From the sequence record MW250785: a stretch of DNA of 64,000 nt. One strand, written 5' to 3'. The notes under the pieces were generated by a model. The model was not told the DNA's origin, did not search any database, and was given only the letters and a program-made list of their open reading frames with translations. This DNA comes from Escherichia phage UPEC03. Shown piece by piece: positions 1-49,838 of this stretch; within the stretch, counting starts at the first letter, position 1, and every line of letters starts with the position of its first letter. The translations under genes were made by a program, and so were the position numbers.

Positions 1-2119
1 TGTCGTTGACCTGCTTCGTGATGGTATGACTACCAAACAGATCCAGGCTGTAGCGATCAAGTATGCAGCGGATCGAATCTCCGCAAAAGAACCTGACTGG
101 CAGTATGTAGCGGCTAACCTCGAAATGTTCGCCCTTCGTAAAACCGTTTACGGGCAGTTTGACCCGATTCCGTTCTACGACCACATCGCTAATCTGGTTC
201 TCGCTGGGAAATACGATAAAGAAATCCTGGCAAAATGGACTCCAGCGGAGATTGATTATCTGGAATCGAAAATCAATCACGATAAAGATTTTGAATTTTC
301 GTATGCTGGCGTTCAGCAGTTGATCGGGAAATATCTGTTACAGGATCGCACGTCCGGCGACATCTACGAAACACCACAGTATGCATTCATGCTGATCGCG
401 ATGTGTCTGCATCAGGACGAAAAACACGCTGATAAAATCAGTCATGTGGTTGACTTCTATAACGCAATTTCGGATCGTAAACTGTCATTACCTACGCCTA
501 TTATGGCGGGTGTGCGTACTCCTACGCGTCAGTTCTCCAGTTGTGTTGTAATCGAATCTGGTGATTCTCTGGGTTCTCTGAACGCTGTTACGTCCGCGAT
601 CGTGAAATATATCTCTCAACGTGCGGGTATCGGTGTCAACGCCGGACACATTCGCGCTATGGGTTCAAAAATCCGTGGTGGTGAAGCAGTCCATACAGGC
701 GTTATCCCGTTCTGGAAACACATTCAGACGGCGGTTAAATCCTGTTCACAGGGCGGTGTTCGTGGTGGTGCAGCAACCCTGTATTATCCGATCTGGCATC
801 TTGAAGTTGAAAACCTGCTGGTTCTGAAAAATAACCGTGGTGTTGAAGAAAACCGTATTCGTCACCTGGACTATGGCGTACAGCTTAACGATTTGATGTA
901 TAAGCGTTTAATCAATAACGATTACATCACCCTGTTCAGCCCTGACGTTGCAAACGATCGCCTGTATGACGCGTTCTATCAAGCGGATCAGAGTGAGTTT
1001 GAAGAACTCTATACCAGTCTGGAAAAAGACCCAACGGTACGCAAGAAACGCATCAAAGCGGTAGATCTGTTCCAGTTGCTTGTTCAGGAACGCGCACAGA
1101 CCGGACGCAAATACATTTTCAACAGTCATCACGTAAACCAGCAGGGTAGTTTCTCTGTTCCGGTTCGTATGTCGAACCTGTGTTGTGAAATCGCGATCCC
1201 AACTTCACCACTGGACGACGATGATAAACTGGCTGGCGAAATTGGACTGTGTACGCTTATGGCGATCGTTCTCGATAATGCCGATATAAGCGAATTCCCA
1301 GCCCTTACACGCATCGCAGTACGCGCACTGGATAACCTGCTGGATTATCAGAACTACCCTGTTGCAGCGGCTCTGAAAGCCAAACAGCGTCGTTCTCTGG
1401 GTGTTGGTATTACTAACTATGCATCATGGCTGGCAAGCAACTATTGCGACTACTCCGAAGCATACGCCGGAAACGTTCATGAGTTGATGGAAGCGTTTCA
1501 ATTTAACCTGCTGGTTGCCTCTATGGAACTCGCACAGGAACGCGGTGCATGTGGACTGTTCCACGAAACGAAATATGCACAAGGGCTGTTGCCTATTGAC
1601 TGGTACTGCAAAAACGTTGATGAACTGGCAGCGCCTGTGTATAACTGCGACTGGGAATGGTTACGCGGTGAAATTAAAAAACACGGTTTGCGTAACTCAA
1701 CGCTTTCTGCTTTAATGCCTTGTGAAAGTAGCTCGCAGGTAAGTAACTCAACTAACGGGATCGAACCTCCGCGCGGCCCTGTGAGTGTGAAATCTTCGAA
1801 AGAAGGTTCATTCAATCAGGTAGTACCAAACCAGAATAATCAGATTGACTTCTATGATTATCTCTGGACAATGGCAAAACGTGGAAACAAAGGTTATCTG
1901 TCGCACGTAGCGGTTATGCAGAAGTTTGTTGATCAGGCTATCTCTGCAAACACAAACTATGATCCGGCTAACTTCCCAGATGGTAAAGTGAAATCTGAAA
2001 TCATCCTTGAAGATCTGCTGTATGCAAACTATTTCGGCATCAAAACGCTGTACTACCACAACACCCGTGACGGTGCAGGTGAGGAAGAAGCGGAAGATTG
2101 CGAAGGTTGCAAAATTTGA
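1..2119 (+). CDS. nrdA: ribonucleotide reductase class Ia alpha subunit, 5' end outside window
   Basis: ORF open to window start (track ORF 26..2119); motif NLCCEIAIP and C-terminal redox tail CEGCKI; followed directly by nrdB. Confidence 0.9.
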   Translation, partial: VVDLLRDGMTTKQIQAVAIKYAADRISAKEPDWQYVAANLEMFALRKTVYGQFDPIPFYDHIANLVLAGKYDKEILAKWTPAEIDYLESKINHDKDFEFSYAGVQQLIGKYLLQDRTSGDIYETPQYAFMLIAMCLHQDEKHADKISHVVDFYNAISDRKLSLPTPIMAGVRTPTRQFSSCVVIESGDSLGSLNAVTSAIVKYISQRAGIGVNAGHIRAMGSKIRGGEAVHTGVIPFWKHIQTAVKSCSQGGVRGGAATLYYPIWHLEVENLLVLKNNRGVEENRIRHLDYGVQLNDLMYKRLINNDYITLFSPDVANDRLYDAFYQADQSEFEELYTSLEKDPTVRKKRIKAVDLFQLLVQERAQTGRKYIFNSHHVNQQGSFSVPVRMSNLCCEIAIPTSPLDDDDKLAGEIGLCTLMAIVLDNADISEFPALTRIAVRALDNLLDYQNYPVAAALKAKQRRSLGVGITNYASWLASNYCDYSEAYAGNVHELMEAFQFNLLVASMELAQERGACGLFHETKYAQGLLPIDWYCKNVDELAAPVYNCDWEWLRGEIKKHGLRNSTLSALMPCESSSQVSNSTNGIEPPRGPVSVKSSKEGSFNQVVPNQNNQIDFYDYLWTMAKRGNKGYLSHVAVMQKFVDQAISANTNYDPANFPDGKVKSEIILEDLLYANYFGIKTLYYHNTRDGAGEEEAEDCEGCKI

Positions 2120-2125
2120 TTCAAT

Positions 2126-2145
2126 GCCCCTTCGGGGGCTTTTTA
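2126..2145 (+). terminator. intergenic hairpin plus T-run between nrdA and nrdB
   Basis: gcccc-ttcg-ggggc stem-loop followed by ttttt. Confidence 0.55.
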
Positions 2146-2157
2146 TAAGGTAAATCC

Positions 2158-3333
2158 ATGTTAACTGTAATGAACACAAACCCAGATCACAAACACTTAG
2201 AACAGCCTATGTTCTTTGGTGAGGATACGGGCGTAGCACGATACGAAGAACAGAAACACCGTGTATTCGAAACCCTGACTGAAAAACAACTGTCATTCTT
2301 CTGGCGACCGGAAGAAGTGGATCTGTCGATCGACCGTATGCAGTACGCGAAAATGCCGGAACACGAAAAAATCATTTTCGATTCGAACCTGCAATATCAA
2401 ACCCTGTTGGATACCATTCAGGGGCGCGGCCCTAACCTGGCTTTCCTCCCTATCGCTTCCGATGTCTCAATGGAAACGTGGATCGAAACATGGGCGTTCA
2501 GTGAAACAATTCATAGCCGCAGTTATACGCACATTCAGCGCAATTTACACATCGACCCGTCGAAAGAGTTCGATAAAATTCTGCGCAACGAAGCGATCAT
2601 GAAACGTTCGGCTTCCATGACAAAATACTACGATGACCTGATCGCAGAATGTCACGAACTGAAAAACATTGTGCTCAAAATCGAAATGTTAACGTCCCAC
2701 GGATACCCAGACGAATCGATCGCAGAGTACGAAAAGAAACGCAAAGAGCAAATGCGTAAATGCAAGGTTGCTCTATACCTGTGTATGCACGCTGTCAACG
2801 CTCTGGAAGCGATCCGCTTCTACGTGTCGTTTACCTTCACGTTCAACTTTGCCGAACAAGGCAAGATGGAAGGTAACGCGAAGATCATGCGTCTGATTGC
2901 CCGTGATGAAGCACTTCACCAGAAAGGCACTCAAAGCAAGATCCGACTCTGGCAGATGGGTAAAGATGACCCAGAAATGGCGGAAATCGCTTACCAGTAC
3001 GAAGAGGAAGCGACAAAGATTTTCCTGGAAGTATACGAACAGGAAAAAGAATGGGCTGAACACCTGTTCTCTATCGGTGATGTAGACGGCGTATCCCTGA
3101 AAAGTACGATCGCTTATATCGAACACCTGACAGATCAGCGTATGCGAGCGGTTGGCTTGCAGTCTCCATTTAAACCAACGCCGAACCCGTATCCGTGGAT
3201 GAACAAATGGTTGAAGTCTGACAACGTACAGGTAGCCCCACAGGAAGTAGAAGTGAGTTCTTACCTGGTTGGCAACCTCAACACCGAGATCAGCGACGAA
3301 TCCTATGCAAAATGGCGACAAAAATACGCTTGA
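2158..3333 (+). CDS. nrdB: ribonucleotide reductase beta subunit
   Basis: 391 aa; ferritin-like di-iron motifs (ETIHSRSY, ARDEALH); uninterrupted reading frame. Confidence 0.9.
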   Translation: MLTVMNTNPDHKHLEQPMFFGEDTGVARYEEQKHRVFETLTEKQLSFFWRPEEVDLSIDRMQYAKMPEHEKIIFDSNLQYQTLLDTIQGRGPNLAFLPIASDVSMETWIETWAFSETIHSRSYTHIQRNLHIDPSKEFDKILRNEAIMKRSASMTKYYDDLIAECHELKNIVLKIEMLTSHGYPDESIAEYEKKRKEQMRKCKVALYLCMHAVNALEAIRFYVSFTFTFNFAEQGKMEGNAKIMRLIARDEALHQKGTQSKIRLWQMGKDDPEMAEIAYQYEEEATKIFLEVYEQEKEWAEHLFSIGDVDGVSLKSTIAYIEHLTDQRMRAVGLQSPFKPTPNPYPWMNKWLKSDNVQVAPQEVEVSSYLVGNLNTEISDESYAKWRQKYA

Positions 3334-3616: not shown

Positions 3617-4014
3617 TGGACGATGTAACATTTGGTGTAATATTTCCTTTGCGTCTGGGTTCAGACAAGAGGATAGACCGGAGTTTCGTTAAATGTGGCG
3701 AATTCCGGCATTGTGTGTATTTTATTGAAATTGACGGTCGGATAGTGTATGTTGGAAAATGTCGTGATTTGTGGAAGCGGTTAGACACATACCGCAATTC
3801 GAAATACTGGCGGGAAGCAAACCCCAGTAATATTCTGAAAACCGCACGTCTGGAAATGGCAATCAAAAAACGTAAGCGTGTAAATCTTATCGTGACAACA
3901 CACGATGAAGACACATATCATGATTTTGAAATAAACATGATCCGAAAAATCAATCCTGAATGGAACAAACAGCACTATGACAAAGCTAACCAAAAATCAG
4001 AAAACCCTCTTTGA
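3616..4014 (+). CDS. denA: endonuclease II-like GIY-YIG nuclease
   Basis: 132 aa; GIY-YIG-like core VYFIEIDGRIVYVGKCRDLWKRLDTYR and C-terminal INPEWNKQH resemble T4 DenA as recalled; sits between nrdB and rnlA as in T4. Confidence 0.7.
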   Translation: MDDVTFGVIFPLRLGSDKRIDRSFVKCGEFRHCVYFIEIDGRIVYVGKCRDLWKRLDTYRNSKYWREANPSNILKTARLEMAIKKRKRVNLIVTTHDEDTYHDFEINMIRKINPEWNKQHYDKANQKSENPL

Positions 4015-5134
4015 CCAGTTGATGAAACTGTGTAACGAAAGCGAATGCTTCTACTTCATTGATCAAAAAACTGTGATGCAAACCAATGTTCGCATCTTTA
4101 ACTATCGCATGGCGAGCTATTCCGACTGGTTAAAACCTGGTGCGCTGGAATGTCGCGGCATCATGTTTGTAATGGATGGGGATACCCCCGTAAAACTCGC
4201 CAGTCGCCCTATGGAGAAGTTTTTCAACTATGCCGAGGTAAAGGCATGGGAAGCGCTGAAAGCCTCTCCTGTGACGATTGGTGAAACCGTAGTGGATGTG
4301 ATGATTAAGGAAGATGGTTCCCTGATCTCCACCTTCTGTGATTCCGGCTATCTGGGCGTTAAGTCTAAAGCATCCGTTCAATCTGAACAGGCTATGGACG
4401 CTATGAGCGTGATCCAGACTAACCGCGCATTGTTCGACCGCCTGACCGAACTGGTTAACGATGGTTTCACAGTCAACATGGAATACGTCGCACCGACAAA
4501 CCGTATTGTAATTGGCTATCAGGAACCAGCAGTGGTGATCCTGAACATCCGTAATAACGACACGGGCGAATATGTCGATTATCAGGATATCTTCGCAGAT
4601 GGTGTATTACGTCCGTTCCTGGTTGAGCGCGAGAAAATCGAAATCACCGATCTGGATGCGTTCATTACCGAAGCCTACACGAAAGAAGGTTTCGAGGGTT
4701 ACGTGATCAAAACTGATAAAGGTTTTGTGAAAGCGAAAACCAACTGGTATGTAAACCTTCACCGCACTAAGGATAGCATCAACAATAATAAGGATCTGTT
4801 CTTAAATATTGTTGAAAATACCGTCGATGACCTGAAACAAATGTTCCTCGATGATATGTACGCACTCAAGAAGATCGACGCGTTCGAAACGTTATTCCTT
4901 GATAGTCTGAATCGTCTGACTGCAAAAGCATTCCAGGCAATCGAAGACACGAAAGGCAAATCACGCAAAGATTACGCGATCGCCCTGAGCGCTGACTTAA
5001 CCCCTGACGGTCGTATTATCTTCGGGCCTATGATGCGTTATTTCGATGATACCGATAAGCAAAAGCTGGTCGATAACATCGTTGCATTAATGGCGAAGAA
5101 CTACGAACAGTTTATACCGGAAGAATATAAATGA
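3977..5134 (+). CDS. rnlA: RNA ligase 1
   Basis: 385 aa; strong resemblance to T4 Rnl1 as recalled (ALECRGIMF, lysine-adenylation motif IKEDGSL, IEGYV). Confidence 0.85.
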   Translation: MTKLTKNQKTLFDQLMKLCNESECFYFIDQKTVMQTNVRIFNYRMASYSDWLKPGALECRGIMFVMDGDTPVKLASRPMEKFFNYAEVKAWEALKASPVTIGETVVDVMIKEDGSLISTFCDSGYLGVKSKASVQSEQAMDAMSVIQTNRALFDRLTELVNDGFTVNMEYVAPTNRIVIGYQEPAVVILNIRNNDTGEYVDYQDIFADGVLRPFLVEREKIEITDLDAFITEAYTKEGFEGYVIKTDKGFVKAKTNWYVNLHRTKDSINNNKDLFLNIVENTVDDLKQMFLDDMYALKKIDAFETLFLDSLNRLTAKAFQAIEDTKGKSRKDYAIALSADLTPDGRIIFGPMMRYFDDTDKQKLVDNIVALMAKNYEQFIPEEYK

Positions 5135-5771: not shown

Positions 5772-5929
5772 TCAAGTCATTTTTCCGTGACATAACCGAA
5801 GGAAAGGTTTATGATGCGAAGAAGGACAAAGAAGGTCTCTGGATCGAAAATGACTGGAACCGTGATATGTGGCTCAATCTAACGAATGAGCATAACAAAG
5901 AACTGATTGAATATGAGATTGTGAAATGA
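5756..5929 (+). CDS. small hypothetical protein (57 aa)
   Basis: ORF found by hand (below track cut-off); stop overlaps pseT start (ATGA). Confidence 0.35.
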   Translation: MQVKIIKSFFRDITEGKVYDAKKDKEGLWIENDWNRDMWLNLTNEHNKELIEYEIVK

Positions 5930-6813
5930 ATCTGTTTATTACTGTAGGCGTACCAGGTAGCGGGAAAACTACATGGGCGAAAGAAAAAGCGCGTCAACTG
6001 GGGAACACGCTGACTGTTTCCCGTGACGATATCCGCAAAACCCTTTACTGTGCTGGCGGTGATCTGACTAACTACCGATTCACCGAAGAGAAAGAACTGT
6101 TTGTTTGCCGTGTGCAAGAAGATACAGTTCGTAATGCCCTGGCGAGTGGAAAGAACGTTATCGTTCACAATACCCATTTACACCAAAAAGATCATGATGT
6201 GTGGCGAGAGATCGCGAAAGAGTTCAATGCTGATTTCCATATCGAATGGATTGATGCCGATATCGTAGAACTCCTGAAACGCAACCATAAACGCGGTGTG
6301 AATGCTCTACCTGTTTCCCGTGTCTGGGCGATGTTCGAACAGTACCGTAAACTCCGTGGCTGGGTTCCGGCTATGAGCTATGCAGATCCGAGCAAACCGA
6401 AATGCGTTATCTTCGACGTTGACGGGACATTAACCAAAGTTGGACAACGTAGCCCGTATGACTTCACGAAGGTTATCAACGATCCGCCTAACCCTCCTGT
6501 TCAAGAACTGTTCAGGATGTATAAGGCCGCTGGTTATGCCTGTGTTGTTGTGTCTGGGCGTGAGGGTACTGCACAGTGCGCACATGATACCGCTGCAAGC
6601 CTGATCGGGTACGATATTGACCTGAGTGATGGTATCTACATGCGCGAAGAAGGTGATCATCGTCACGATTTCCACGTAAAAGAGCAAATACTTGTTGAAA
6701 AGATTCTCGATAAGTATTATCCTGTTCTTGCAGTGGACGACAGGGATACACCAGTCGGGATGTGGCGAATGAACGGTATCCCATGTTTCCAGGTTGATTA
6801 CGGCGACTTCTAA
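5926..6813 (+). CDS. pseT: polynucleotide 5'-kinase/3'-phosphatase
   Basis: Walker A GVPGSGKTT; HAD phosphatase motif VIFDVDGTL; length and layout match T4 Pnk. Confidence 0.9.
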   Translation: MNLFITVGVPGSGKTTWAKEKARQLGNTLTVSRDDIRKTLYCAGGDLTNYRFTEEKELFVCRVQEDTVRNALASGKNVIVHNTHLHQKDHDVWREIAKEFNADFHIEWIDADIVELLKRNHKRGVNALPVSRVWAMFEQYRKLRGWVPAMSYADPSKPKCVIFDVDGTLTKVGQRSPYDFTKVINDPPNPPVQELFRMYKAAGYACVVVSGREGTAQCAHDTAASLIGYDIDLSDGIYMREEGDHRHDFHVKEQILVEKILDKYYPVLAVDDRDTPVGMWRMNGIPCFQVDYGDF

Positions 6814-6819
6814 AAACAG

Positions 6820-8270: not shown

Positions 8271-8272
8271 AA

Positions 8273-8524
8273 ATGGCTAAATCAATTCAAGCAATTATCG
8301 CTGATACCGTCAGCAAATCCAAAAAGCTGTTCGACAAAGGCGAAATTCTGGAAGCCCCGACGCGTATTGACGTAATGACATCAATGATCATTGATGCGCA
8401 TCAGGGTAAACTAAAATCCCGTGCCGATGAAGTCATGGCGTACATCGTCCAGTTCGAAGACGTATGTAAGTACGCGAAAGATGTTGATCCGCTGGTTCGC
8501 GAAATCTATCGCAAACAGTTCTAA
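8273..8524 (+). CDS. hypothetical protein (31.1-like by position)
   Basis: 83-aa ORF directly after gene 31. Confidence 0.55.
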   Translation: MAKSIQAIIADTVSKSKKLFDKGEILEAPTRIDVMTSMIIDAHQGKLKSRADEVMAYIVQFEDVCKYAKDVDPLVREIYRKQF

Positions 8525-8531
8525 AAATTCC

Positions 8532-8608
8532 GGCCCTTTAGCTTAATTGGTTAGAGCGGGTGACTCATAATCGCGCGGTTGCTGGTTCGAATCCAGCAGG
8601 GGCCACCA
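8532..8608 (+). tRNA. tRNA with CAT anticodon (Ile2-type or Met)
   Basis: hand-folded cloverleaf: acceptor GGCCCTT/AGGGGCC, D-arm with GG, anticodon loop CTCATAA, T-loop TTCGAAT, 3' CCA encoded; close to E. coli ileX as recalled. Confidence 0.75.
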
Positions 8609-8613
8609 AATAC

Positions 8614-8689
8614 GCAGGTGTAGTTCAATTGGTAGAATATCTGGTTTCCATCCAGATTGTTGAGGGTTCGAGTCCCTTCACCTGCTCCA
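8614..8689 (+). tRNA. tRNA-Gly (anticodon TCC)
   Basis: hand-folded cloverleaf: acceptor GCAGGTG/CACCTGC, anticodon stem TCTGG/CCAGA, loop TTTCCAT, T-arm GAGGG-TTCGAGT-CCCTT, CCA encoded. Confidence 0.8.
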
Positions 8690-26016: not shown

Positions 26017-28263
26017 TTAGATTTTGACTTCTTTTTCTTCCAGGACGATTTCACATTCGAATGATGTGGTTTCCCAGACTTTCCAGAAATCGGATGGAAT
26101 ATTATCTTCTTTCGGAAGAATATCTTTTGCAGCGATAGAAACTTTGGTTTCTTCGAAGTCCAGATCCGCGAACCATGCATGGGCTACTACAACACCGTAC
26201 ATTACGCGACTTAAACGGGCATTCAGTTTACGGACTTCCTGAATCGTTGCCTTTGTCTGCTTATCAAGATACTCGACTACCTGATCTTTGTCAAGCGCAT
26301 CCAGTTCAGATTTCACCTGATCGTAAGCCCACAGGATAATCAGGTCGCCGTTGTTCAGTTTCTTCTTACCTTCGTCACGTTTCGCGACGGTAGCCGCTAC
26401 AGCAGGAAGGGAGGAAACACCCTTGACTTTCACGTTCAGTTCTTTCGACATGTAAACATCAGTCGATTCTGTGCGCTCAACCTTCGGAGAGAACCCGTAA
26501 TCACGAATATCCTGTTCAGACAGCCATTCACCCGCTGCATCACCAAAGCGCTGTTTCAGCCCTTCTGCGTTGCGCAGTCCGATCGCGTTGTCACGGAAGA
26601 ACTTCATAACCTTCTGACGGCCTTTCAGGATTTCCAGACGCACGTTATCAGTCACGAACTCTTTACCGCTTAACCCGCGAGTCATGCCACGGTTAACCAG
26701 AGGCAGAGAGGTAAAGTCTACCAGTACCGACATACGGTCATCACCGATTTTTTCCAGCGGCTTGATAGTCAGGCCAGAAGCGCGAAGGTTTTTCAGTGTC
26801 GGAATATCAGTTTCCAGCGGCAGAACTTTCACGTTCACGATACCATCTTTAACGATGGTGAAGTTACGCACCTGCTTAGTTTCGATTTTTTCCGGCAGAC
26901 CGAATTCTTTCTGTTTGCTTTCTGGGATAGTCACATACCCTTCCAGATCCGTGTTGATGGAAATGTTAGGACGGGAACTGTTACCCACCAGATGTTTAAC
27001 CGATACTTTGGTTGTGGTCTGGGTAAATTTCGGTGTCCAGACTTCATGCGCTACCATTTGCGCCGCCAGTGCTTTACGTTCTTCTGGGATTGCAGCGTTT
27101 GCGATCTGTTCGGTCAGTTGATCCAGTGTATCATCTTCTTTCTGTACAGTCTGACGGCCTGTGCGGTTATACGCCCAGTGCTCAGAAGACAGGTCGATCA
27201 CTGTGTCAGTTTGTGCCAGCAGTTCGAGCGCATCAACCAGAGTGAACGCGTTTTCGTCTGGAACCATGTTGTAATCAATACCATCAACGAAACGCTGTGA
27301 TGGATCTACAACAGCCTGTGCAATCAGGTCTTTCGCGTTGGAGTAGTCCTGTTTGGTAAAGCAGTTGTCATACGCCTTGATCAGACGGACATCACCCAGC
27401 TTTTGAAGCACTTTCCATGCCAGATCAGGGTTCATTGTGTGCAGTGCATGATAAAGCACGACATACAGAACTTGCTGTTCGCTGGCGATGTTCGGATCGA
27501 ATCCGTCAACATCATTAATCGCGTTTTCACCCAGCGCCCAGATGTTTTTGATGTGTTCTGGAACTAGCACAACACCGTTTGCAGCGTTCAGGACATACAC
27601 GCACCCTTCGTCCAGGTAGATCGCATGGGTAGCATCAGCAACTTTGACTTCGATACGCGCGGAAGTCTGCGCGGTGATGATTTCGTTAAATGCTGGTTCG
27701 TATGCGTCGAAACCTTCAACGAATTTGTGCAATGCGTTGGTTGCTTCTGCCATTTTTTCCAGCAGAGGACGGTTTACATAATAACCGTATTCCAGGAACG
27801 CGATACTGTTGAAAGTCAGTGGCAGAACCGCACACGCTTTCAGAATATCATCGGTACGCCAGCAGTTATCATAACCATCAGTCAGGAAGATCAGGCTGTT
27901 CAGGTTGCCGTTTTCAGATTGCAGATCGGTAGCGATTTCCGCAGCCAGATTCAACGGCTCAACAAAGCCAGTACAACCCGTAGGTTTCAGGTAACGGTCG
28001 ATAGCCGCGCAGATGTTAGACAGGTCAGAGACATTGCTAACCTTCTCACCACGGAACACCGTGCCGTAATCGCCTTTGCTGGAGAAGTACAGGATCGAAA
28101 CGGTGTCATCCTGTTTAACCAGACTCGCCAGATTTGCTTTCAGGTGTTTACGGATCTTAGGCAGTTCGTTGTACATTGAACCGGATACGTCACACACGAA
28201 AACGTGGTTTGTCGGGGTTGGCTTCGATACAGCGTTTTTGAATTCGATATTTGTGATTGACAT
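26017..28263 (-). CDS. von Willebrand factor A (vWA) domain protein
   Basis: 748 aa; N-terminal MIDAS motif VFVCDVSGSM and later FLTDGYDN; long C-terminal region with no motif recognised. Confidence 0.7.
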   Translation of the reverse strand: MSITNIEFKNAVSKPTPTNHVFVCDVSGSMYNELPKIRKHLKANLASLVKQDDTVSILYFSSKGDYGTVFRGEKVSNVSDLSNICAAIDRYLKPTGCTGFVEPLNLAAEIATDLQSENGNLNSLIFLTDGYDNCWRTDDILKACAVLPLTFNSIAFLEYGYYVNRPLLEKMAEATNALHKFVEGFDAYEPAFNEIITAQTSARIEVKVADATHAIYLDEGCVYVLNAANGVVLVPEHIKNIWALGENAINDVDGFDPNIASEQQVLYVVLYHALHTMNPDLAWKVLQKLGDVRLIKAYDNCFTKQDYSNAKDLIAQAVVDPSQRFVDGIDYNMVPDENAFTLVDALELLAQTDTVIDLSSEHWAYNRTGRQTVQKEDDTLDQLTEQIANAAIPEERKALAAQMVAHEVWTPKFTQTTTKVSVKHLVGNSSRPNISINTDLEGYVTIPESKQKEFGLPEKIETKQVRNFTIVKDGIVNVKVLPLETDIPTLKNLRASGLTIKPLEKIGDDRMSVLVDFTSLPLVNRGMTRGLSGKEFVTDNVRLEILKGRQKVMKFFRDNAIGLRNAEGLKQRFGDAAGEWLSEQDIRDYGFSPKVERTESTDVYMSKELNVKVKGVSSLPAVAATVAKRDEGKKKLNNGDLIILWAYDQVKSELDALDKDQVVEYLDKQTKATIQEVRKLNARLSRVMYGVVVAHAWFADLDFEETKVSIAAKDILPKEDNIPSDFWKVWETTSFECEIVLEEKEVKI

Positions 28264-30223: not shown

Positions 30224-30760
30224 TCAGTATGCAATGTTTAATTTTGCAAATTTACCAAAATGTTTTATCGCTTCCCGATCGTATGCTTTTGCAGCCTCGT
30301 ATTCGTCACGATAGGAACCGATATGTTTAACCTTGCCGTCAATCTTTATCTGTGCAATGTAACGTATTCCAGTAGGTTGATCACGTACACATACACCCTT
30401 GAATCGACTGGTTGCTACTCTTCGTTTAGTCCGGTTCTGACAGTTTCGGGATTGATCCGCTTCACGCAAGTTATCAATCCCGTCGCCAGCCTCAACACCA
30501 TTTTTATGATCAATCACATCAGGCAGTTTTCCGGTTGCAACGTAGTAGATGATTCGATGACGTAGATATCCTTTGCTTTTGAAATAAACGCGGGTATATC
30601 CTCCTTTAATCTTCGAACCTACTTCCTTTCCGATCAAGTCAGAACGTTTGTGTGACGTTCGTATAATTGTCCCCGTTTGTATATCAACAGAAACAGTTTT
30701 AAGGAATTCGTCAATTCCTTTCTGTTCTTCTTCGATTGTTCTTAGTCCGTTGTGTGACAT
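30224..30760 (-). CDS. HNH homing endonuclease with AP2 domain
   Basis: HNH core RHRIIYYVATGKLPDVIDHKNGVEAGDGIDNLR; AP2-like FKGVCVRD...YIAQIKIDGK...GSYRDEYEAAKAYD; overlaps the methyltransferase gene 3' end. Confidence 0.7.
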   Translation of the reverse strand: MSHNGLRTIEEEQKGIDEFLKTVSVDIQTGTIIRTSHKRSDLIGKEVGSKIKGGYTRVYFKSKGYLRHRIIYYVATGKLPDVIDHKNGVEAGDGIDNLREADQSRNCQNRTKRRVATSRFKGVCVRDQPTGIRYIAQIKIDGKVKHIGSYRDEYEAAKAYDREAIKHFGKFAKLNIAY

Positions 30761-31665
30761 AACACCTTCTTGATTTGTTTTGCTATAGCCTCGATTACTG
30801 GTATTGAAACAGAATTACCTGCTTGTTTATACGCTTGCATCTTGCTTTTGTTGATAATAAACGAATCTGGGAAACCCTGCAAACGAAAACACTCACGGGG
30901 AGTAAGTCTTCGGGGGTTCTTTCCTTCCTGCAATACCAGACATTGAACACCATCTTTATAGTAATTTGCAGTGATAGTCCCAGTGTGCGTAGAATCGCTT
31001 GTGACGGCCTGATAACCGAAACCCTTACCGTTTGCCTTATTTCGTTCCTTACGCTCTCTAAAGCCCTTCCATGCGTTATCTGACAGGGTGAACGAATCAT
31101 CAGCATCTTCGAGGATGTCGCCTACGCGTGTAGGGGTACGCGGGGGAACCGGAAACGAAAAGAATACATCATCCAGGAAGCAGACAATAAACACGCGTTC
31201 CCGTCTTTGGGGTAGTCCGAAATCCTTTGTGTTCAGGCGTTGATAGAATACGTTATATCCTTCGGCCTCCAGAAGCCCGTAAATCGTTTTAAACGTCTTC
31301 CCCTTGTCATGGGTTAGCAGTTCAGGCACGTTCTCAAAGAACAACACACGGGGCTTTTTAGCGCGTATAATGCGGAGGATTTCGAAGAACACCGTACCGC
31401 GTACATCATCAAAGCCCAGTTTCAATCCGGCTTTACTGAACGCCTGACACGGGAACCCCGCGAGCAGGATATCATGATCAGGTACTTTGTTTTCATCAAT
31501 GGCGAATAGATCACCCTGTAGGTTATCATCGCCCCAGTTTTCGATATATGTTTGCTGTGCGAACTTGTCGATTTCAGACGTTAAAAGGCATTCGACACCG
31601 CCGAACGCCTTATCAAATCCTAATCGAACCCCGCCCACACCAGCGCAGAGGTCAATTATTTTCAT
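30742..31665 (-). CDS. DNA (cytosine-5)-methyltransferase
   Basis: 307 aa with C5-MTase motifs I DLCAGVGG, IV GFPCQAFS, VI FFENV, VIII QRRERVFIV and X AGNSV. Confidence 0.85.
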   Translation of the reverse strand: MKIIDLCAGVGGVRLGFDKAFGGVECLLTSEIDKFAQQTYIENWGDDNLQGDLFAIDENKVPDHDILLAGFPCQAFSKAGLKLGFDDVRGTVFFEILRIIRAKKPRVLFFENVPELLTHDKGKTFKTIYGLLEAEGYNVFYQRLNTKDFGLPQRRERVFIVCFLDDVFFSFPVPPRTPTRVGDILEDADDSFTLSDNAWKGFRERKERNKANGKGFGYQAVTSDSTHTGTITANYYKDGVQCLVLQEGKNPRRLTPRECFRLQGFPDSFIINKSKMQAYKQAGNSVSIPVIEAIAKQIKKVLCHTTD

Positions 31666-31931
31666 ACGTCAAAATCAATCTCGTCGATTTTGTATGAGTT
31701 TTCGTCAATGTCCGCCCATAGGGTTACATTAACGTGTTTGCTATCTTCGTACAACTGGCGACCATCAATCCCGCCCGTGTAATTGCTTTCGGTACGTTCA
31801 GTAACTTCCAGTCGGAGGCTATCGCGCATGATCTGAACAACAGCCTGTTCCAGTGTAACTGCGTCTGGGTTTTTGGTATCGCCCAGTACAACATCTTTAA
31901 CGTTCAAAATAATATCAGTCATTAGTGCCAC
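31662..31931 (-). CDS. hypothetical protein
   Basis: 89-aa ORF coupled to the methyltransferase gene. Confidence 0.5.
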   Translation of the reverse strand: MALMTDIILNVKDVVLGDTKNPDAVTLEQAVVQIMRDSLRLEVTERTESNYTGGIDGRQLYEDSKHVNVTLWADIDENSYKIDEIDFDV

Positions 31932-32164
31932 TCCGTTTTAATACCATGTCGGTATGCGTCAATCCCCAGCGGGGTAATCAGCAACCATGCTTTCGAATTA
32001 TCGTGATAGCCCGTTACCCTTCGAGCGTAACCTTTTTGAATCAGGGCATCACGCCCTGATTTGCTGGGTACGTCATCGAAATCTAAGTCTAGCACCTTAG
32101 TTGCATATCCGTAAAGTTTATACAGAACATCAATTTCAGCGCCGGACAATTTAGGATACATCAT
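31922..32164 (-). CDS. hypothetical protein
   Basis: 80-aa ORF. Confidence 0.5.
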   Translation of the reverse strand: MMYPKLSGAEIDVLYKLYGYATKVLDLDFDDVPSKSGRDALIQKGYARRVTGYHDNSKAWLLITPLGIDAYRHGIKTEWH

Positions 32165-33162
32165 TTGTAATACCCCACAACATGATCGCGGTATACGCGT
32201 TCGATGAAATCGTTCCAGAATTCGCGGTCAACTTCTTTCGGATATGTTGAAATCGCTGCAAGCCGTTCGACTTCGCCCATGACTTCTTCCAGCTTTTCCT
32301 GTACGGTTGCGAACGGTACGCCGCCAGCTTTAACCAGTTTCAGGAATGCGCTATCAGGCAGAGGATAAACGATATCACCATCTTTGTAAATCTGGATCAA
32401 CTGCATACCACCGCGCAACGCGTGACTTAAAGCCTTCCAGTCGATGCCGTTGTTGGCTTCTGCTTGTCGTGCGCGTTCTCCGTATTCATCCCAGAGTTTG
32501 TACACTGACTTACGCATTTCATCGGCTTTGATCGTGAACTGGAATTTACGCCCCAGCACTTCATAGAAGTCCTGACAACCAGATTTCATTGTCGTGTCGG
32601 TAACGAATCGGCAGAACTCGTTTGTAGGGAAACGATTCTTGATGTCAGACACTTTCACTTCACGCGTATAGCGTTTCATATCTGGTGTGAATTCCTGAAT
32701 ACCACCGATCGTTTCGGTTTCTTTCAGTACATCGACAACTTCGCGCAGTGCAGCCAGTCGGGAACCTTTCACACCATATTTTGCGGCTTGCTTGCGAACA
32801 TAACCGAACAGGCCAGTTAGTTCAGTGGTGTAAAAACGCCAGCGGTTAGCGCGGATATACTGCCAGATTTCAGAGTTAGCGATCAGCTTGTCATCCGAAG
32901 CGTGAAGCATATCGAGCGCTACGGTATCACCATCACACGCAAGGCTGATAAACTTAGTCAGACTATACAACTGACGATCAACGTCGTCTACGGTGTTTTT
33001 AGAGCTTTTATCGCCCGTGCTGGTGTCGATAGACTTCTTCGCAGTGCCTAACAGGATTTCGCGAGGATGAGGGAGATAGATCCCTTTGTAGTCTTTATCG
33101 CTTGTTGGTGTTTCCAGTCCGTAAAGATGGGATCCAAAAATCATTTCAGTAATCATTTTCAT
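32161..33162 (-). CDS. nucleotidyltransferase (pol-beta superfamily) of unknown specificity
   Basis: GS-x10-DxD signature FGSHLYGLETPTSDKDYKG; start moved to ATG 33162, which has RBS ggag and a TAATG overlap with the upstream stop. Confidence 0.55.
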   Translation of the reverse strand: MKMITEMIFGSHLYGLETPTSDKDYKGIYLPHPREILLGTAKKSIDTSTGDKSSKNTVDDVDRQLYSLTKFISLACDGDTVALDMLHASDDKLIANSEIWQYIRANRWRFYTTELTGLFGYVRKQAAKYGVKGSRLAALREVVDVLKETETIGGIQEFTPDMKRYTREVKVSDIKNRFPTNEFCRFVTDTTMKSGCQDFYEVLGRKFQFTIKADEMRKSVYKLWDEYGERARQAEANNGIDWKALSHALRGGMQLIQIYKDGDIVYPLPDSAFLKLVKAGGVPFATVQEKLEEVMGEVERLAAISTYPKEVDREFWNDFIERVYRDHVVGYYK

Positions 33163-33920
33163 TATACAAATCTCCAATAAAACCCTTTATGAGTTTTTCT
33201 TTTACCGTTACAGCATGAACTTACATGCCCTTTGTTATACCCCATTTCAACGGCTTCCACAATACCACCATTTAAAATAGTTTCTCTTTCTGTTTTGATA
33301 CATTTCATAATCAAAGGTTTTATCAATTCCGTCTTCTTTTGTGAAATATTAGCTAATGCAATTACATTTCTGATATCAGATTCACTCATTAAATCAGAAA
33401 TCTTCTTTCTTAACCATACATAGCCTTGACTTTTGGCAAGTTTGCCGGAGCAACATTCATGAATATGACTAGGGTTAAATCCACGCAATTTCATTTCTTG
33501 CCGACCGCCTAATATGATAATCTCGTCTCCTGTTTCAAGGTTGAATCCGACAACTGGAATTATTTGCCGTTCCGACATTTTCTTTCTCGCTTCTTTCGTG
33601 AATATTGTAAGAGATTTTAATTTTCTCGCGTCGCTCATTTGCGAAGATGTCGTTTTGTATTTCTTAGTATTATGAGACATACGGAAAAAAGCATATCTCA
33701 TTTTATCACCAGCATACTTAGCAAGTAGATGATGAGCAAGATAATGCTCTTTATATGTTAAATATACTAAATTTTCGGGTTCATCAGTACCACCTAATGA
33801 CTTAGCAACGATATGGTGTATATCATAACCGCGCTTTCTATACTTTTTCGAGTAACCTTTAGGTATATCTCTTCTTTTTGCCAATGTAATTAGTTGGTCG
33901 TAAATACGCTTATAGTTCAT
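33162..33920 (-). CDS. HNH homing endonuclease (Mob-like family)
   Basis: HNH motif YDIHHIVAKSLGGTDEPENLVYLTYKEHYLAHH; start at internal ATG 33920 with RBS ggag; paralogous to ORF 61728..62396. Confidence 0.65.
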   Translation of the reverse strand: MNYKRIYDQLITLAKRRDIPKGYSKKYRKRGYDIHHIVAKSLGGTDEPENLVYLTYKEHYLAHHLLAKYAGDKMRYAFFRMSHNTKKYKTTSSQMSDARKLKSLTIFTKEARKKMSERQIIPVVGFNLETGDEIIILGGRQEMKLRGFNPSHIHECCSGKLAKSQGYVWLRKKISDLMSESDIRNVIALANISQKKTELIKPLIMKCIKTERETILNGGIVEAVEMGYNKGHVSSCCNGKRKTHKGFYWRFV

Positions 33921-34050
33921 ACACTCTCCTTTAGGCGTATTTATCACTTAAAATCCGAACACGGTTTCCATAATCATTTTCATCAGAATTCAACCTTTAA
34001 TGTTTTTGCGATCCCGCGCAATTCCGCGGTAGTAATAACAGGGATCATAA

Positions 34051-34323
34051 TCATTTCCTCACAGTTTCAAATTCTTCGTCAGATTTCCAGTACACGTTAA
34101 AGTTACGGCAATCGTGGTCGGAAGTCAACGTATATTTTTCTTTTGTTTTCTCGTCGGTGATCACCATCGTTTCATTCTCGATCGAGTCCACACCATAGAC
34201 GAATACTTTATCACCGCGTTTATTCAGGAACGCTTCACCTGTTTCAACCAACTGCCAGCAGTTGACGGGTAAACCACCCGCACAGATCGGACGGTTTACG
34301 AGGCAGTAAGGACGTTTAATCAT
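34051..34323 (-). CDS. hypothetical protein
   Basis: 90-aa ORF. Confidence 0.5.
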   Translation of the reverse strand: MIKRPYCLVNRPICAGGLPVNCWQLVETGEAFLNKRGDKVFVYGVDSIENETMVITDEKTKEKYTLTSDHDCRNFNVYWKSDEEFETVRK

Positions 34324-34547: not shown

Positions 34548-34603
34548 TATATAATACAAAAGCCCTCACGCGAACGCAAGGGCTTTTTTAATCTTTTATC
34601 AGA
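34548..34603 (-). promoter_or_regulatory. PeSL-like stem-loop/promoter cassette
   Basis: minus-strand reading: aaaaaagccc-TTGCGT...-gggctttt hairpin, TATTAT, ACACATACCGCATGAA leader. Confidence 0.5.
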
Positions 34604-35666
34604 GTCCCGTGAAAGCTACAACGATTTGATAGTGGTCATCGAAGAATTCCCCTTGTCGTTGTACGACCTCATGTAAGGGCATCCAGAACGCCTCTAACGC
34701 ATCGTCAGAACCGCCCATAATGCGGGGCAGACTACCATCATTGTTAGGCTCTAACTTGATGTACTGCGCCACAGTCGGTTTTGAGAAGTGTACGGAACGC
34801 TTCGGATGATCGAACAACATCGAATTGCGGATTGAACCACGGATAACCTTTTCAGGAACCTTGATCCGTACCTCTTCGAGCAGTTCGCGGATCGCACAAT
34901 CCAGGAACGTTTCATTTGCGTTTTTGTGTCCGCCGGGAAGGGCTAACGCGTCTTTACCTGGGGCGAACTTACGACGAATTACCAGCAGGTGATTGTTGCA
35001 CACAACCACACTATCACCCGTGCAACAGTTTAGCGCGTCGGGGTATGGGTAGTTTTTGAATTTCTCCAATTCGCTTTCCCATTTCTCGTATTCGTAGAAT
35101 AAACGCCAGAACGTGTCTTCCATCATCCATTTGTCGATATAATCAACGGTTGCTTGAGGAACAAAGCGCAACAGTTTCTTATCCCACCCGTTTTTATGGT
35201 TAAAGATAATCGGACGCAGATCGGTTGCTGATAGATCCTTGCCGTTAATCTGGACAGGTGGAACTGGTACGTGTGTCCATCCGAACGCTTTAAGCCAGTA
35301 TGAACCTGCATCTTTTTCGTAACCGTAGATAGCGATTTTGTCGCCTTTGGTTTCCCTGATAGCAGTACGAACAGAGGTTTTCCATTTCTCTTCGTTGTAA
35401 AGATAATCTGGAATGTGCTCAAACTGAACACGAACAACATCTTCGATCGGGAAGTTAGCGTTTAACCATGAGAAGATCATGGTTTGACGCTCACGCGCCG
35501 TCAGCGGGTTTAAAACGTTAGGGTAAGCATATGCTGAACCCAGAAGGATGTAAACGATCTTTGCTTCTCCGAGTGCTTTACGCACCATTGCTGCATGACC
35601 ATTATGGAAGGGTTGGAATCTGCCAATTACGACAGCTTTATCAAATTGTTTCATAACGTGCTCCAC
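34599..35666 (-). CDS. bifunctional NMN adenylyltransferase / Nudix hydrolase (NatV/NadM-like)
   Basis: 355 aa; HxGH motif GRFQPFHNGH at the N-terminus; C-terminal Nudix box GGHKNANETFLDCAIRELLEEV. Confidence 0.8.
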   Translation of the reverse strand: MEHVMKQFDKAVVIGRFQPFHNGHAAMVRKALGEAKIVYILLGSAYAYPNVLNPLTARERQTMIFSWLNANFPIEDVVRVQFEHIPDYLYNEEKWKTSVRTAIRETKGDKIAIYGYEKDAGSYWLKAFGWTHVPVPPVQINGKDLSATDLRPIIFNHKNGWDKKLLRFVPQATVDYIDKWMMEDTFWRLFYEYEKWESELEKFKNYPYPDALNCCTGDSVVVCNNHLLVIRRKFAPGKDALALPGGHKNANETFLDCAIRELLEEVRIKVPEKVIRGSIRNSMLFDHPKRSVHFSKPTVAQYIKLEPNNDGSLPRIMGGSDDALEAFWMPLHEVVQRQGEFFDDHYQIVVAFTGL

Positions 35667-43019: not shown

Positions 43020-44366
43020 TTAAAAGTTCTCTTCGACGAATGCAGCCAGTCGCCCACGATATACGGTATCCAGGATCACATGACTTGAATGACCGTACTC
43101 TTTAAGTTTTTCAACCGCATACACAAAGCCGTTGTTAACAGCAGTGTTGCGCGGGTTGTCAATCTGTTTAATGTTCCCGCATAGTATCAGAAGGGTGTTC
43201 TCACCGCAACGGGAAATGATGGATTTGATTTCGTGATTGCTCAAGTTTTGACATTCATCAACAATCAGAACCGAACCTTTACCCGGATCAGGATGCCCGA
43301 TTGAGCGCCCACGGAAGTAATACAGGCTAGGGAACTGGACAACGTTTTTCTCCAGCAGCCCTTCTACGTATTTGTCAACTTCCGGTTGATCCTTAAACAG
43401 AATGTTCAGGCTCGTAATACATGGTTCTACAGCAGGACGCAGTTTTTCGCCAAGAGTACCAGGTAAGAACCCGATTTCGCCCGACAGAGGGCTATCTGCC
43501 TTGACATACATCAGGTTTGCGAAGTGTCCCGCGTTTACCATGTGCATTGCACCAGCAACAGCCAGCATGGTTTTACCTGAACCCGCCGCGCCCATGATGG
43601 TCACAACGTCATTGTTTTTGTCCAGAATAGCATCAACGAATGACGCTTGCAGAGCATCGCGAGGCTGAATTGTTTTCATCAGCTTACGCTTTAACGCCTG
43701 TTCGTGCTTAATAGGCAACACTTCAAGCTGAAACTCTCCAGCATTCACCACACGCCCTACAATCTCACCACACGATAGAATGTATTGGTTAGGGTAGAAA
43801 TCCGCGTCAGGAAGCGATGAATACGTTATAACGGCAACAGGCCCGACATACTCCAGGACTTCAACAGTTTCCCAGAACAGAGGCAGGTCGATATAACCTG
43901 AATACAACACATCACTATCTTTCAGCGAGTCATCGCCAGTGTATTGAAGAACCGAACAACCTTTAGACATCGCGATCAACAGCATGTTAATGTCACGAGT
44001 CACCAGAGTTGCGCCCTGCTGAATACAAGTTGCAATGATCCGCGCATCCTGTTTATCCAGAGGGAATTCTTCGGTGCCGTCATAATCGACGATTTTCAGT
44101 GTTACGCTTTCCGGTACTGCTGGGTTCGATAAGTTTAACGAAACCCCTGTTTGGGTAATTGCTTCATAATTTTGTCCCAGGATTGCTTTGGACAAAAGCC
44201 GGATCGCCAGTCGTGCTTCATGAGCGGTTCGCTCTTTGCTTTTCAGGTGATCCAGTTCTTCCATCGTTGCAGCGGTGATAATGATTTCGCTGTCAGGTTC
44301 GATGTAAGAATAGATTGAATATGGGTTACTAATCAAAACATTGGTGTCTAATACGTATTTTGACAT
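43020..44366 (-). CDS. PIN-domain PhoH-like ATPase (PhoH2-type)
   Basis: N-terminal PIN-like YVLDTNVLI; Walker A GAAGSGKT; Walker B VLIVDECQN. Confidence 0.8.
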   Translation of the reverse strand: MSKYVLDTNVLISNPYSIYSYIEPDSEIIITAATMEELDHLKSKERTAHEARLAIRLLSKAILGQNYEAITQTGVSLNLSNPAVPESVTLKIVDYDGTEEFPLDKQDARIIATCIQQGATLVTRDINMLLIAMSKGCSVLQYTGDDSLKDSDVLYSGYIDLPLFWETVEVLEYVGPVAVITYSSLPDADFYPNQYILSCGEIVGRVVNAGEFQLEVLPIKHEQALKRKLMKTIQPRDALQASFVDAILDKNNDVVTIMGAAGSGKTMLAVAGAMHMVNAGHFANLMYVKADSPLSGEIGFLPGTLGEKLRPAVEPCITSLNILFKDQPEVDKYVEGLLEKNVVQFPSLYYFRGRSIGHPDPGKGSVLIVDECQNLSNHEIKSIISRCGENTLLILCGNIKQIDNPRNTAVNNGFVYAVEKLKEYGHSSHVILDTVYRGRLAAFVEENF

Positions 44367-48391: not shown

Positions 48392-48684
48392 CAGAATGTG
48401 ATCTCCGCAAACTGCATTCTACGCTCAATCGCATGGATAGCGTTATCACGCTGTTCTTTGTTTTCATATCCAGCCCAGGTAATCGGAGTTGAACAGATCA
48501 GGTGAAAAGTGATTGCTGGGTGTCTCTTCCCTTCAACAACGATTGTTGCATCATCTTCGATCCAGGTTACGTGATCCAGATTCACCGGATAGTTTCTTAC
48601 GGTAACAGTTTCACCAACCATAGGCGACACGTCCAGAATATCACGATCACGAACGTATGATTTAATACGAGATACGATTAACAT
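48391..48684 (-). CDS. hypothetical protein
   Basis: 97-aa ORF. Confidence 0.5.
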   Translation of the reverse strand: MLIVSRIKSYVRDRDILDVSPMVGETVTVRNYPVNLDHVTWIEDDATIVVEGKRHPAITFHLICSTPITWAGYENKEQRDNAIHAIERRMQFAEITF

Positions 48685-49838
48685 TATTTCAACTCCACTG
48701 CATATACATCGGTTTCAGGGGCTTTGTGTACGCGCATATCTTTACCACATACCGCATAAGCCGGACAGTTACGGCAACCGTTATGATCCTTGTTGCCCGT
48801 CAGTTCTTTACGGAACTGTTTTGTTTTCGGGTGTTCCCAGATATCCTTCACAAAATCTTCGGCTTCCAGAACATCCAGACCTTCTTCCCAGCCACCTTCA
48901 ACCCAACGTTCGGTAAACGAGCAAGGGAAGAACTGACCACGTTCATTAATGTAAGAGCTAAACATCGTCGCTTCACAGTCTTCGGCGTATTGCTTGTACT
49001 GTTCGAAGTTCGGGTGTCCCTCCATCGCTTCAACGAAAGCGGGGGCTGAACAGCTATCGAATCCAAATCCTACACCAGAATCGAGGCAATATTCAACAAG
49101 TTTTTTATATTGTTCGCGGGTAACGGTGTCCCAGTTCTTACCGCGTCCTTTTTGTTTCAGTCCCAGGAACACGATCGCGTTGACTTGTTTCAGGCGCGGA
49201 TCATTCTTCACGGCATCAACCACGTTAAACGCATCATCATAGGTTTTCGAGCTAACCATGAAGTGAAGGTTGATTTGCTGTTGTCCGGCTTCTGTCAGGT
49301 TCGCTACTGAGTCGAAAGCGACATCAAAACCAGCGTGTTTATAAACCGATACCGCAACAGCCCCAGCAACCGCCGCTAAACGCGCTGCAACGTCTTTTGA
49401 TACGTCAGCAATGGTAAGGTTCGGTACAATGCCTTTAGAACGCGCATACGCCATCATATCGAACATATCAGGGTTTGTTTGCCCCTGTGCATCAGCACCG
49501 AGTGCGCATTGAGTCAGCCAGGGCATTTTGTCGATGATTTTTTTGAAGTTGGCAAGATCCATGTTGAACCCGTTAGGGTTATTGGACTTGTAGCAGAACC
49601 CGCAGAGTTTACCAGCGGGACCATTACATTTGGTAGTGATCTCAACATCCAAGATTTCTGGGAATGGGGCATAGGTAGGATCAGTTTCGAACGATGTTCC
49701 CCAGCGAGCAAACTCACCAGTTTTAACGTTGAAATTGTAGTTGTACCAATTAGAGCGAGCGAAGCGCATATTACCCTGCTGGTAAATCATTAGCGAAGGG
49801 GCTTTCATTACAGTCTGTGCGCGGTCAATAATATCCAT
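48684..49838 (-). CDS. putative Fe-S / radical-SAM-like enzyme
   Basis: 384 aa; Cys cluster TTKCNGPAGKLCGFCYK (Cx7CxxC) near the N-terminus and C-terminal GCRNCPAYAVCG. Confidence 0.4.
   Translation of the reverse strand: MDIIDRAQTVMKAPSLMIYQQGNMRFARSNWYNYNFNVKTGEFARWGTSFETDPTYAPFPEILDVEITTKCNGPAGKLCGFCYKSNNPNGFNMDLANFKKIIDKMPWLTQCALGADAQGQTNPDMFDMMAYARSKGIVPNLTIADVSKDVAARLAAVAGAVAVSVYKHAGFDVAFDSVANLTEAGQQQINLHFMVSSKTYDDAFNVVDAVKNDPRLKQVNAIVFLGLKQKGRGKNWDTVTREQYKKLVEYCLDSGVGFGFDSCSAPAFVEAMEGHPNFEQYKQYAEDCEATMFSSYINERGQFFPCSFTERWVEGGWEEGLDVLEAEDFVKDIWEHPKTKQFRKELTGNKDHNGCRNCPAYAVCGKDMRVHKAPETDVYAVELK

Follow-up and report, generated by a model that had tools for sequence, protein, structure and literature searches.

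The window analysed here, a 64,000-nt stretch of the genome of Escherichia phage UPEC03 (MW250785), carries an open reading frame (ORF) for a putative nucleotidyltransferase (NTase) that begins inside the last codon of a homing endonuclease gene. The locus raises two questions, namely what such an enzyme does for the phage and what the endonuclease has to do with it. A first-pass annotation had recognised a Pol-beta-superfamily NTase of about 333 aa by a GS-x10-DxD signature, had noted a TAATG overlap with an HNH endonuclease gene, and had left the subfamily unassigned. We found that the superfamily and the neighbour were named correctly but that the subfamily can be assigned. The gene is the Pseudotevenvirus ortholog of phage T4 nrdC.11, an already known and widely conserved T4-phage gene, and its product is a member of the RlaP family (PF10127) by its N-terminal catalytic domain.

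The first-pass annotation left the strand unstated; the nrdC.11 ORF is on the minus strand and runs from ATG at 33162-33160 to TGA at 32163-32161, giving a protein of the predicted length that starts MKMITEMIFGSHLYGLETPTSDKDYKG. The signature reads as G10-S11, ten residues and D22-K23-D24, and the TAATG is completed by the TAA of the upstream HNH gene at 33164-33162. At its other end the nrdC.11 stop overlaps the start of the next ORF as ATGA. These overlaps make nrdC.11 a member of a tightly coupled minus-strand gene chain (Table 1).

The product is 52% identical to T4 NrdC.11 (NP_049709, 336 aa, annotated 'nucleotidyltransferase'; E 6e-119) over 333/336 aa. By megablast the region matches Cronobacter phage Banach with 96.7% identity and, along the ~65% of the query that is free of the HNH gene, GAP161 with ~97%. 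Banach and GAP161 belong to the RB16/RB43 group, and the window comes from a T4-like member of the Straboviridae, genus Pseudotevenvirus. The GAP161 ortholog is annotated 'nucleotidyltransferase, similar to NrdC.11 of RB43/RB16'. Upstream of the ortholog tk, rI and rI.-1 are annotated in both Banach and GAP161, and a Pfam scan of the window itself found tk, an SPFH protein and an NMN (nicotinamide mononucleotide) adenylyltransferase (NMNAT)-Nudix gene. The order tk - rI - ... - (homing endonuclease gene, HEG) - nrdC.11 is common to the relatives of the window and T4.

Assignment to PF10127 ('RNA repair pathway DNA polymerase beta family') was made with 44.9 bits against a cutoff of 23 bits (E=1.5e-11), and the PHROG family phrog_388, 'nucleotidyltransferase', matched with E=2.6e-120. 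All of the 120 listed homologs carry PF10127 in their precomputed annotation. The same Pfam scan gave no match to SMODS/CD-NTase, Mab-21, OAS, NTP_transf_2, KNTase or PolyA_pol/CCA families, and NCBIfam and PADLOC returned zero matches. Homologs at E<=1e-3 numbered 3,363 proteins in a 90%-clustered database and 3,628 representatives of 50%-identity clusters, 803 of the latter at E<=1e-30 and mostly full length. Together with the Pfam and PHROG matches, these numbers show that the signature is not there by chance. Among phage records, 1,585 of 50,697 contain a homolog, annotated as nucleotidyltransferase, 'thioredoxin' or hypothetical. A scan of the genomes of 185,579 prokaryotic species turned up six loci only, of which at least two (L003 and L007) lie on ~172-178-kb contigs that resemble whole phage genomes inside bacterial or metagenome-assembled genomes. 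The NrdC.11 clade is thus essentially viral, and the scan gave no independent bacterial-operon context for it.

Many GenBank phage records give the NrdC.11 ortholog the label 'thioredoxin', among them H74, H76, H79, H82, H83, H85, H91, H94 and H96, and so do Banach gp209 and KMI9_197. The label appears to be an annotation error: we found no thioredoxin-family match in the Pfam scan, and the nrdC locus tag is presumably where the name came from. With ~1,600 sequenced phages carrying the gene, often as 'thioredoxin' or 'hypothetical', a correct name has annotation value.

Conservation was examined in an alignment of 79 representatives with 33-52% identity to the query. In the N-terminal half G10 is kept in 79/79 sequences and S11, D22 and D24 in 78/79 each; at D22 and D24 the loss of catalytic acidic residues, which the first-pass annotation had named as telling against its call, is not seen. 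F9-G10-S11 corresponds to the hG[GS] motif and D22-K23-D24 to the [DE]h[DE]h motif of the Pol-beta superfamily. From this alignment D22 and D24 are unambiguous as the predicted first two catalytic carboxylates. Two candidates for the third are both conserved: D62 (75/79, with E in another 4/79), at the start of strand 61-67, and D84 (75/79), in L-D-M. Also kept are D60 (76/79) and Y129 (79/79), and in the C-terminal half R230, H247, R250 and P267 (each 79/79) together with D241-W-K243.

AlphaFold2, run with a 20-sequence alignment, gave a model with a predicted local distance difference test (pLDDT) score of 85.5 and a predicted template-modelling (pTM) score of 0.70. The model consists of an alpha/beta NTase domain (~1-130), which has the fold of the Pol-beta superfamily, a beta-rich insert (~150-210) of lower confidence and variable length, and a helical bundle (213-332) closed by a long helix at the C-terminus. 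Foldseek against viral models returned full-length matches to other phage NTases with template-modelling (TM) scores of 0.5-0.76, including those of PaBG, the Bacillus phages G, Mater and BCD7, and giant viruses. Against the Protein Data Bank (PDB) Foldseek matches were weak, and sequence searches of the PDB with the single protein and with the 79-sequence profile gave nothing meaningful.

RlaP was reportedly named by Burroughs and Aravind in 2016. The name refers to an association with RNA ligases. From comparative genomics its members were expected to put back missing nucleotides at damaged RNA ends ahead of ligation, a prediction extended explicitly to phages and to RloC-type excision of the wobble base (PMC7824862). 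A preprint of December 2025 (PMC12776372; bioRxiv 10.64898/2025.12.29.696909) studied the RlaPs of Pseudomonas fluorescens (PfRlaP) and P. aeruginosa (PaRlaP). Both add 1-2 nucleoside monophosphates (NMPs), or dAMP, to an RNA 3'-OH and do not use DNA or protein as substrates; they favour Mn2+ and the 5' half of nicked tRNA, and they partly rescue aminoacylation of a tRNA that lacks one anticodon-loop nucleotide (PMC12776372). The PfRlaP crystal structure has an N-terminal NTase domain and a C-terminal helical domain whose terminal helix packs onto the NTase domain, and T4 NrdC.11 is explicitly placed in PF10127 (PMC12776372). The model of the window protein agrees with this published architecture in its NTase domain, helical bundle and terminal helix.

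Gene neighbourhoods of relatives were compared in 34 diverse loci (4 from the genome scan and 30 viral contigs) whose NTases are 27-48% identical, with ORFs within ±4 kb searched against Pfam and positions set by tblastn. Among the distant viral relatives (42-47% identity), four distinct loci (L072/L073, L081, L083 and L085) share a same-strand cassette in which the NTase is followed by an ATP-dependent ligase at 47-475 nt, by RtcB at 1.5-2.2 kb and by a ~370-aa protein. Five ORFs of L073 fell outside the Pfam scan; the genes that tblastn compared do not differ between L073 and L072, and the result is unchanged. RtcB is also near the NTase in L062 and L006, which brings the total to 6 distinct loci at 0.4-3.4 kb downstream. 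L007 has a related ligase 704 nt downstream of the NTase, and an ATP-dependent ligase is adjacent in 5 loci altogether. Rnl1 was found in L057, Pnkp in L064, HD-domain genes 11-855 nt downstream in L079, L080 and L087, and Thg1 and a cyclic-phosphate-processing cREC domain once each. The linkage to ligases and RtcB indicates that the RNA-ligase-associated property of RlaP holds for the NrdC.11 clade. The four-gene viral cassette looks like an uncharacterised phage RNA-repair operon. Its ~370-aa protein has no Pfam match and is preceded in L081 and L085 by an ORF of ~135-145 aa.

The window itself encodes a T4-type RNA ligase 1 (Rnl1) and a T4-type polynucleotide kinase/phosphatase (Pnkp; Table 1). 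Taking these observations together, we think it fairly probable that NrdC.11 is a template-independent, RlaP-type RNA 3'-terminal NTase that acts between healing by Pnkp and sealing by Rnl1 and replaces nucleotides removed by host anticodon nucleases. By analogy with Pseudomonas RlaP, which adds 1-2 NMPs to an RNA 3'-OH, we infer that the substrate is RNA 3' ends, and we likewise infer how many nucleotides are added and what the reaction is for, the likeliest role being restoration of nuclease-damaged tRNA before ligation. A host anticodon nuclease would cut a tRNA and, in the manner of RloC, would also take out a nucleotide. Phage Pnkp would then heal the ends; it is the candidate for this step because it removes the 3'-phosphate and so allows nucleotide addition. 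NrdC.11 would next extend the 5' fragment at its 3'-OH by one or two NMPs, using a two-metal site predicted to be formed by the G10-S11 loop, D22, D24 and a third conserved aspartate, D62 or D84. Finally Rnl1 would seal the break, and some of the repaired molecules would be back to full length; Rnl1 is the putative downstream partner since it requires a 3'-OH end, and extension by an RlaP-type enzyme would yield one. If this is true, T4-like phages hold a tRNA repair kit of three enzymes (Pnkp, NrdC.11 and Rnl1) and not two. Such a kit would restore nucleotides removed by 'smart' anticodon nucleases and would offer a testable answer to how these phages might cope with RloC-type defence.

Several points weigh against this proposal. 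Of the 249 positions of the PF10127 profile only ~21-145 are matched by the query (24-140) and by 20/20 other clade members scanned; only the N-terminal half fits the family, so the C-terminal half, which has an invariant R230/H247/R250 motif of its own, could confer a different acceptor specificity. The assayed RlaPs are Pseudomonas enzymes from outside the NrdC.11 clade, and T4 NrdC.11, described in the preprint as 'of unknown function', falls there into cluster 5, compared with cluster 1a for the assayed enzymes (PMC12776372). The RlaP biochemistry comes from this single preprint, which is not yet peer-reviewed (PMC12776372). In the window Rnl1 and Pnkp lie ~27 kb from nrdC.11, and the T4 gene is likewise not adjacent to RNA-repair genes. 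The ligase adjoining the distant relatives is of the DNA-ligase type (PF01068 + OB_2). Lastly, the nrdC.11-mobD.3 region is among the large fragments lost spontaneously from T4 genome-reduction mutants (PMC9825161), which suggests that the gene is dispensable in the laboratory and leaves no phenotype as an anchor. In the literature on nrdC.11 we found only genome-description papers and one genome-reduction study.

The alternative that survives best keeps the chemistry, addition of an NMP to an RNA 3'-OH, and changes its target and purpose: the enzyme would, for example, rebuild CCA ends that have been trimmed from tRNAs of the host or the phage, or would add short tails that mark host RNAs. 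We consider this quite unlikely. Consistent with it, PfRlaP and PaRlaP label full-length tRNAs and ribosomal RNA-sized species in total E. coli RNA with little NTP specificity (PMC12776372), the phage has its own tRNA-Met and tRNA-Gly genes, and nrdC.11 is unlinked to Rnl1 and Pnkp in the window genome. However, when a tRNA is nicked the assayed RlaPs act on its internal 3' end in preference to that of the acceptor stem (PMC12776372), and the linkage to ligases and RtcB in relatives implies a sealing step after addition. A tRNA-nucleotidyltransferase match, the other outcome that the first-pass annotation had named as telling against it, was looked for, and neither Pfam nor NCBIfam gave a match to the CCA-adding/poly(A) polymerase family (PF01743). 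Eukaryotic poly(A) polymerases matched the NTase model in Foldseek only at E>0.09 and a TM score of ~0.13.

Transfer to a small molecule or protein, in the manner of ANT/KNTase/LinB or MNT-HEPN enzymes, for example AMPylation of a host toxin, a defence protein or a metabolite, is in our judgement very unlikely. The fold matches in this direction are generic and low in Z-score, at 5-13% identity, and the Pfam scan gave no match to NTP_transf_2, KNTase_C or aminoglycoside NTase families. The Rx4-6H motif of HEPN is absent, the assayed RlaPs left E. coli proteins unlabelled (PMC12776372), and the genomic context of the relatives is RNA repair. Synthesis of a signalling or decoy nucleotide by a CD-NTase/OAS-like cyclase, which the first-pass annotation had suggested, or by a HalB-like oligodeoxyadenylate synthase, for example one that replenishes the inhibitory oligo-dA of Hailong, is most improbable, as identity to HalB is 13% and confined to the NTase core, no SMODS, CD-NTase or OAS family was matched in Pfam and nothing in PADLOC, no HalA-like or effector partner lies nearby, and the gene neighbourhoods point to healing and sealing of RNA ends.

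We then return to the second question, the neighbour of nrdC.11. Its identification as a homing endonuclease held up, with a match to PHROG 655, homing endonuclease, at E=2.8e-34. The protein has an N-terminal HNH domain and a C-terminal I-HmuI/NUMOD-like DNA-binding domain; the latter scores 27.0 bits in Pfam against a cutoff of 27, and HNH scores 18.8 bits, under its cutoff of 21.4. Its real start is the ATG at 33920 (MNYKRIY..., ribosome-binding site AAAGGAGAG) and not the GTG at 33947. The gene is missing from GAP161 and many close relatives. In Klebsiella phage KMI9, from the different genus Slopekvirus, it is 99.2% identical at the nucleotide level compared with 75-84% for the flanks.

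Alignments place the insertion point in the HEG-less allele, which reads …GAAACCGTGTTTGGTTCTCACCTG…, at GTGTTTGG^TTCTCAC. This position lies within codons F9-G10-S11, the catalytic hG[GS] motif. A relic of the original nrdC.11 5' end is left upstream of the HNH gene and aligns to the nrdC.11 start of HEG-less GAP161 up to GTGTT(C/T)GG, where it diverges into the cassette. Next to it stands a second relic, from the 3' end of GAP161_121, the gene before nrdC.11 in relatives without the HEG, and GAP161 genes 121-123 (~1.2 kb) are otherwise missing from the window. The last ~32 nt of the cassette (33131-33162) are a recoded substitute for the first nrdC.11 codons. At its end the cassette has an RBS (ribosome-binding site)-like GGAG of its own, an ATG and ten recoded codons (MKMITEMIFG) fused in frame to the remaining gene. 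The cassette thus brings a replacement 5' end, and nrdC.11 stays intact.

Identity along nrdC.11 is mosaic. Positions 61-120 of the gene are 98-100% identical to HEG-carrying phages and only 78% identical to GAP161; from nt 121 the window gene matches GAP161, while Banach follows KMI9 to about nt 400. These patterns look like co-conversion tracts of different length. Judged from these sequence comparisons, the HNH gene is a recently mobile selfish homing element and not a functional partner of the NTase. In T4, mobD sits at the same boundary and overlaps the nrdC.11 start by 17 nt; the HNH protein of the window is 40% identical to T4 MobD, in the HNH domain only.

The proposal of tRNA repair by NrdC.11 can be taken further, in a form that we hold to be unlikely and offer tentatively. 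After RloC-type excision, direct repair has been regarded as insufficient to give a functional tRNA (PMC12776372, PMC7824862). The NrdC.11 clade might be a phage-specialised RlaP whose distinct C-terminal domain, with the invariant R230, H247, R250 and P267 and a D-W-K-x-x-S-H motif, aims the addition at a particular damaged tRNA end, which would make it the missing phage countermeasure to anticodon nucleases that, like RloC, excise the wobble nucleotide. Its catalytic-motif codons might in addition be a recurrent homing site for different Mob endonucleases, the one seen here and mobD in T4.

Table 1. Features of the nrdC.11 locus, the RNA-repair genes and other genes of the window (positions count from the first nucleotide of the window).
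Feature	Coordinates	Strand	Length	Basis or remark
nrdC.11-type Pol-beta nucleotidyltransferase coding sequence, RlaP family	32161..33162	minus	333 aa	ORF, PF10127, PHROG 388
Free-standing Mob-type HNH homing endonuclease gene	33162..33920	minus	252 aa	PHROG 655, Pfam HNH/NUMOD-like
Relic of original nrdC.11 5' end	33948..33983	minus	11 codons	ATGAAAATGATTATGGAAACCGTGTTCGGATTTTAA, translating as MKMIMETVFGF and a stop
Relic of 3' end of the gene preceding nrdC.11 in HEG-less relatives	33983..34054	minus	23 codons	MIMIPVITTAELRGIAKTLKVEF and a stop
T4-type RNA ligase 1 (Rnl1)	3977..5134	plus		PF09511 E 2.2e-21; PF20819 T4_Rnl1_C E 9.4e-40
T4-type Pnkp	5926..6813	plus		PF25109 HAD_PNKP E 8.5e-45; AAA_33 kinase E 7.1e-22
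tRNA-Met(CAT)	8532..8608	plus		
tRNA-Gly(TCC)	8614..8689	plus		
Class I ribonucleotide reductase genes	26..3333			
ORF following nrdC.11	31922..32164	minus		start overlaps nrdC.11 stop
C-5 cytosine DNA methyltransferase	30742..31665	minus		full-length; PF00145 E 3e-92
Second putative homing endonuclease, HNH_3	30224..30760	minus	178 aa	
Terminator-like hairpin	34558..34587	minus	13-bp stem	AAAAGCCCTTGCG...GGGCTTTT
Bifunctional NMN adenylyltransferase-Nudix gene	34599..35666	minus		NadR/NatV-like
von Willebrand factor A domain protein	26017..28263	minus	748 aa	domain N-terminal
PIN domain-PhoH ATPase fusion	43020..44366	minus	448 aa	predicted RNA-targeting nuclease/NTPase
SPASM (radical-SAM accessory) iron-sulfur domain protein	48684..49838	minus	384 aa	

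Upstream of nrdC.11 by 1.4 kb lies the bifunctional NMNAT-Nudix gene. A homolog of it occurs within 10 kb of the NTase in 16/86 related loci, and in 5 diverse loci the NTase has NAMPT/NAPRTase genes no more than 4 kb away; L004, L031, L047, L050, L060, L066 and L076 are among the loci concerned. Both findings suggest that the NTase is recurrently linked to phage NAD+ salvage genes. A strong terminator-like hairpin directly follows the NMNAT-Nudix gene, so the ORFs from 34514 to at least the methyltransferase gene may form a separate transcription unit. A sigma-70 promoter scan of the region gave 9 hits compared with 9.6 expected, which is chance level, and no convincing promoter.

The C-5 cytosine DNA methyltransferase gene stands ~500 nt downstream of nrdC.11, with two small ORFs in between. 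No cognate restriction enzyme was noticed for it, and it is presumably an orphan, anti-restriction methylase. The second putative homing endonuclease gene shares its first 19 nt with the end of the methyltransferase gene; this endonuclease gene is present in Banach, and GAP161 has a different small gene there. The two tRNA genes form a cluster with Rnl1 and Pnkp (3977-8689), which the class I ribonucleotide reductase genes precede. Elsewhere in the window the PIN-PhoH fusion was found, together with the von Willebrand factor A and SPASM domain proteins, both 'hypothetical' in relatives.

Among known systems, NrdC.11 was compared with Hailong HalB (PDB 9dbh), a template-independent oligodeoxyadenylate synthase. 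Beyond the low identity given above, HalB has 217 aa and no equivalent of the C-terminal domain; it is primed by protein and forms a defence system of two genes together with the HalA channel, whereas the gene described here is phage-encoded and has no HalA. With Pseudomonas RlaP, NrdC.11 belongs to the same Pfam family by the curated threshold; it shares the GS / DxD signature with a predicted third catalytic Asp and the arrangement of an N-terminal NTase and a C-terminal helical domain, and it has relatives associated with RtcB and other ligases. NrdC.11 differs in its clade-specific C-terminal half, which is ~80 aa longer and holds the variable beta insert, in its separate cluster of the similarity network, and in standing outside a ligase operon in this phage.

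T4 NrdC.11 is the full-length ortholog in the same neighbourhood downstream of tk/rI, and there too an HNH mob gene (mobD) lies directly upstream and overlaps the nrdC.11 start. The two sequences are about half diverged, and the upstream endonuclease of the window is another Mob-type protein, placed inside the first 11 codons with a relic left behind. The insertion as such resembles the Mob/Seg endonucleases of T4-like phages (mobD, mobE, mobA): an HNH + NUMOD-type gene between conserved genes, polymorphic in presence and absence, near-identical across genera and accompanied by co-conversion tracts in the flanking gene. It differs from them in that the insertion here lies in coding sequence, at the catalytic-motif codons, and not between genes, and in that the cassette supplies a recoded 5' end, so that the host gene is neither split nor inactivated. 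The HNH insertion thus shows cleanly, and in nature, how a homing element can enter a coding sequence at its most conserved motif and, through the recoded end that it brings, keep the gene intact.

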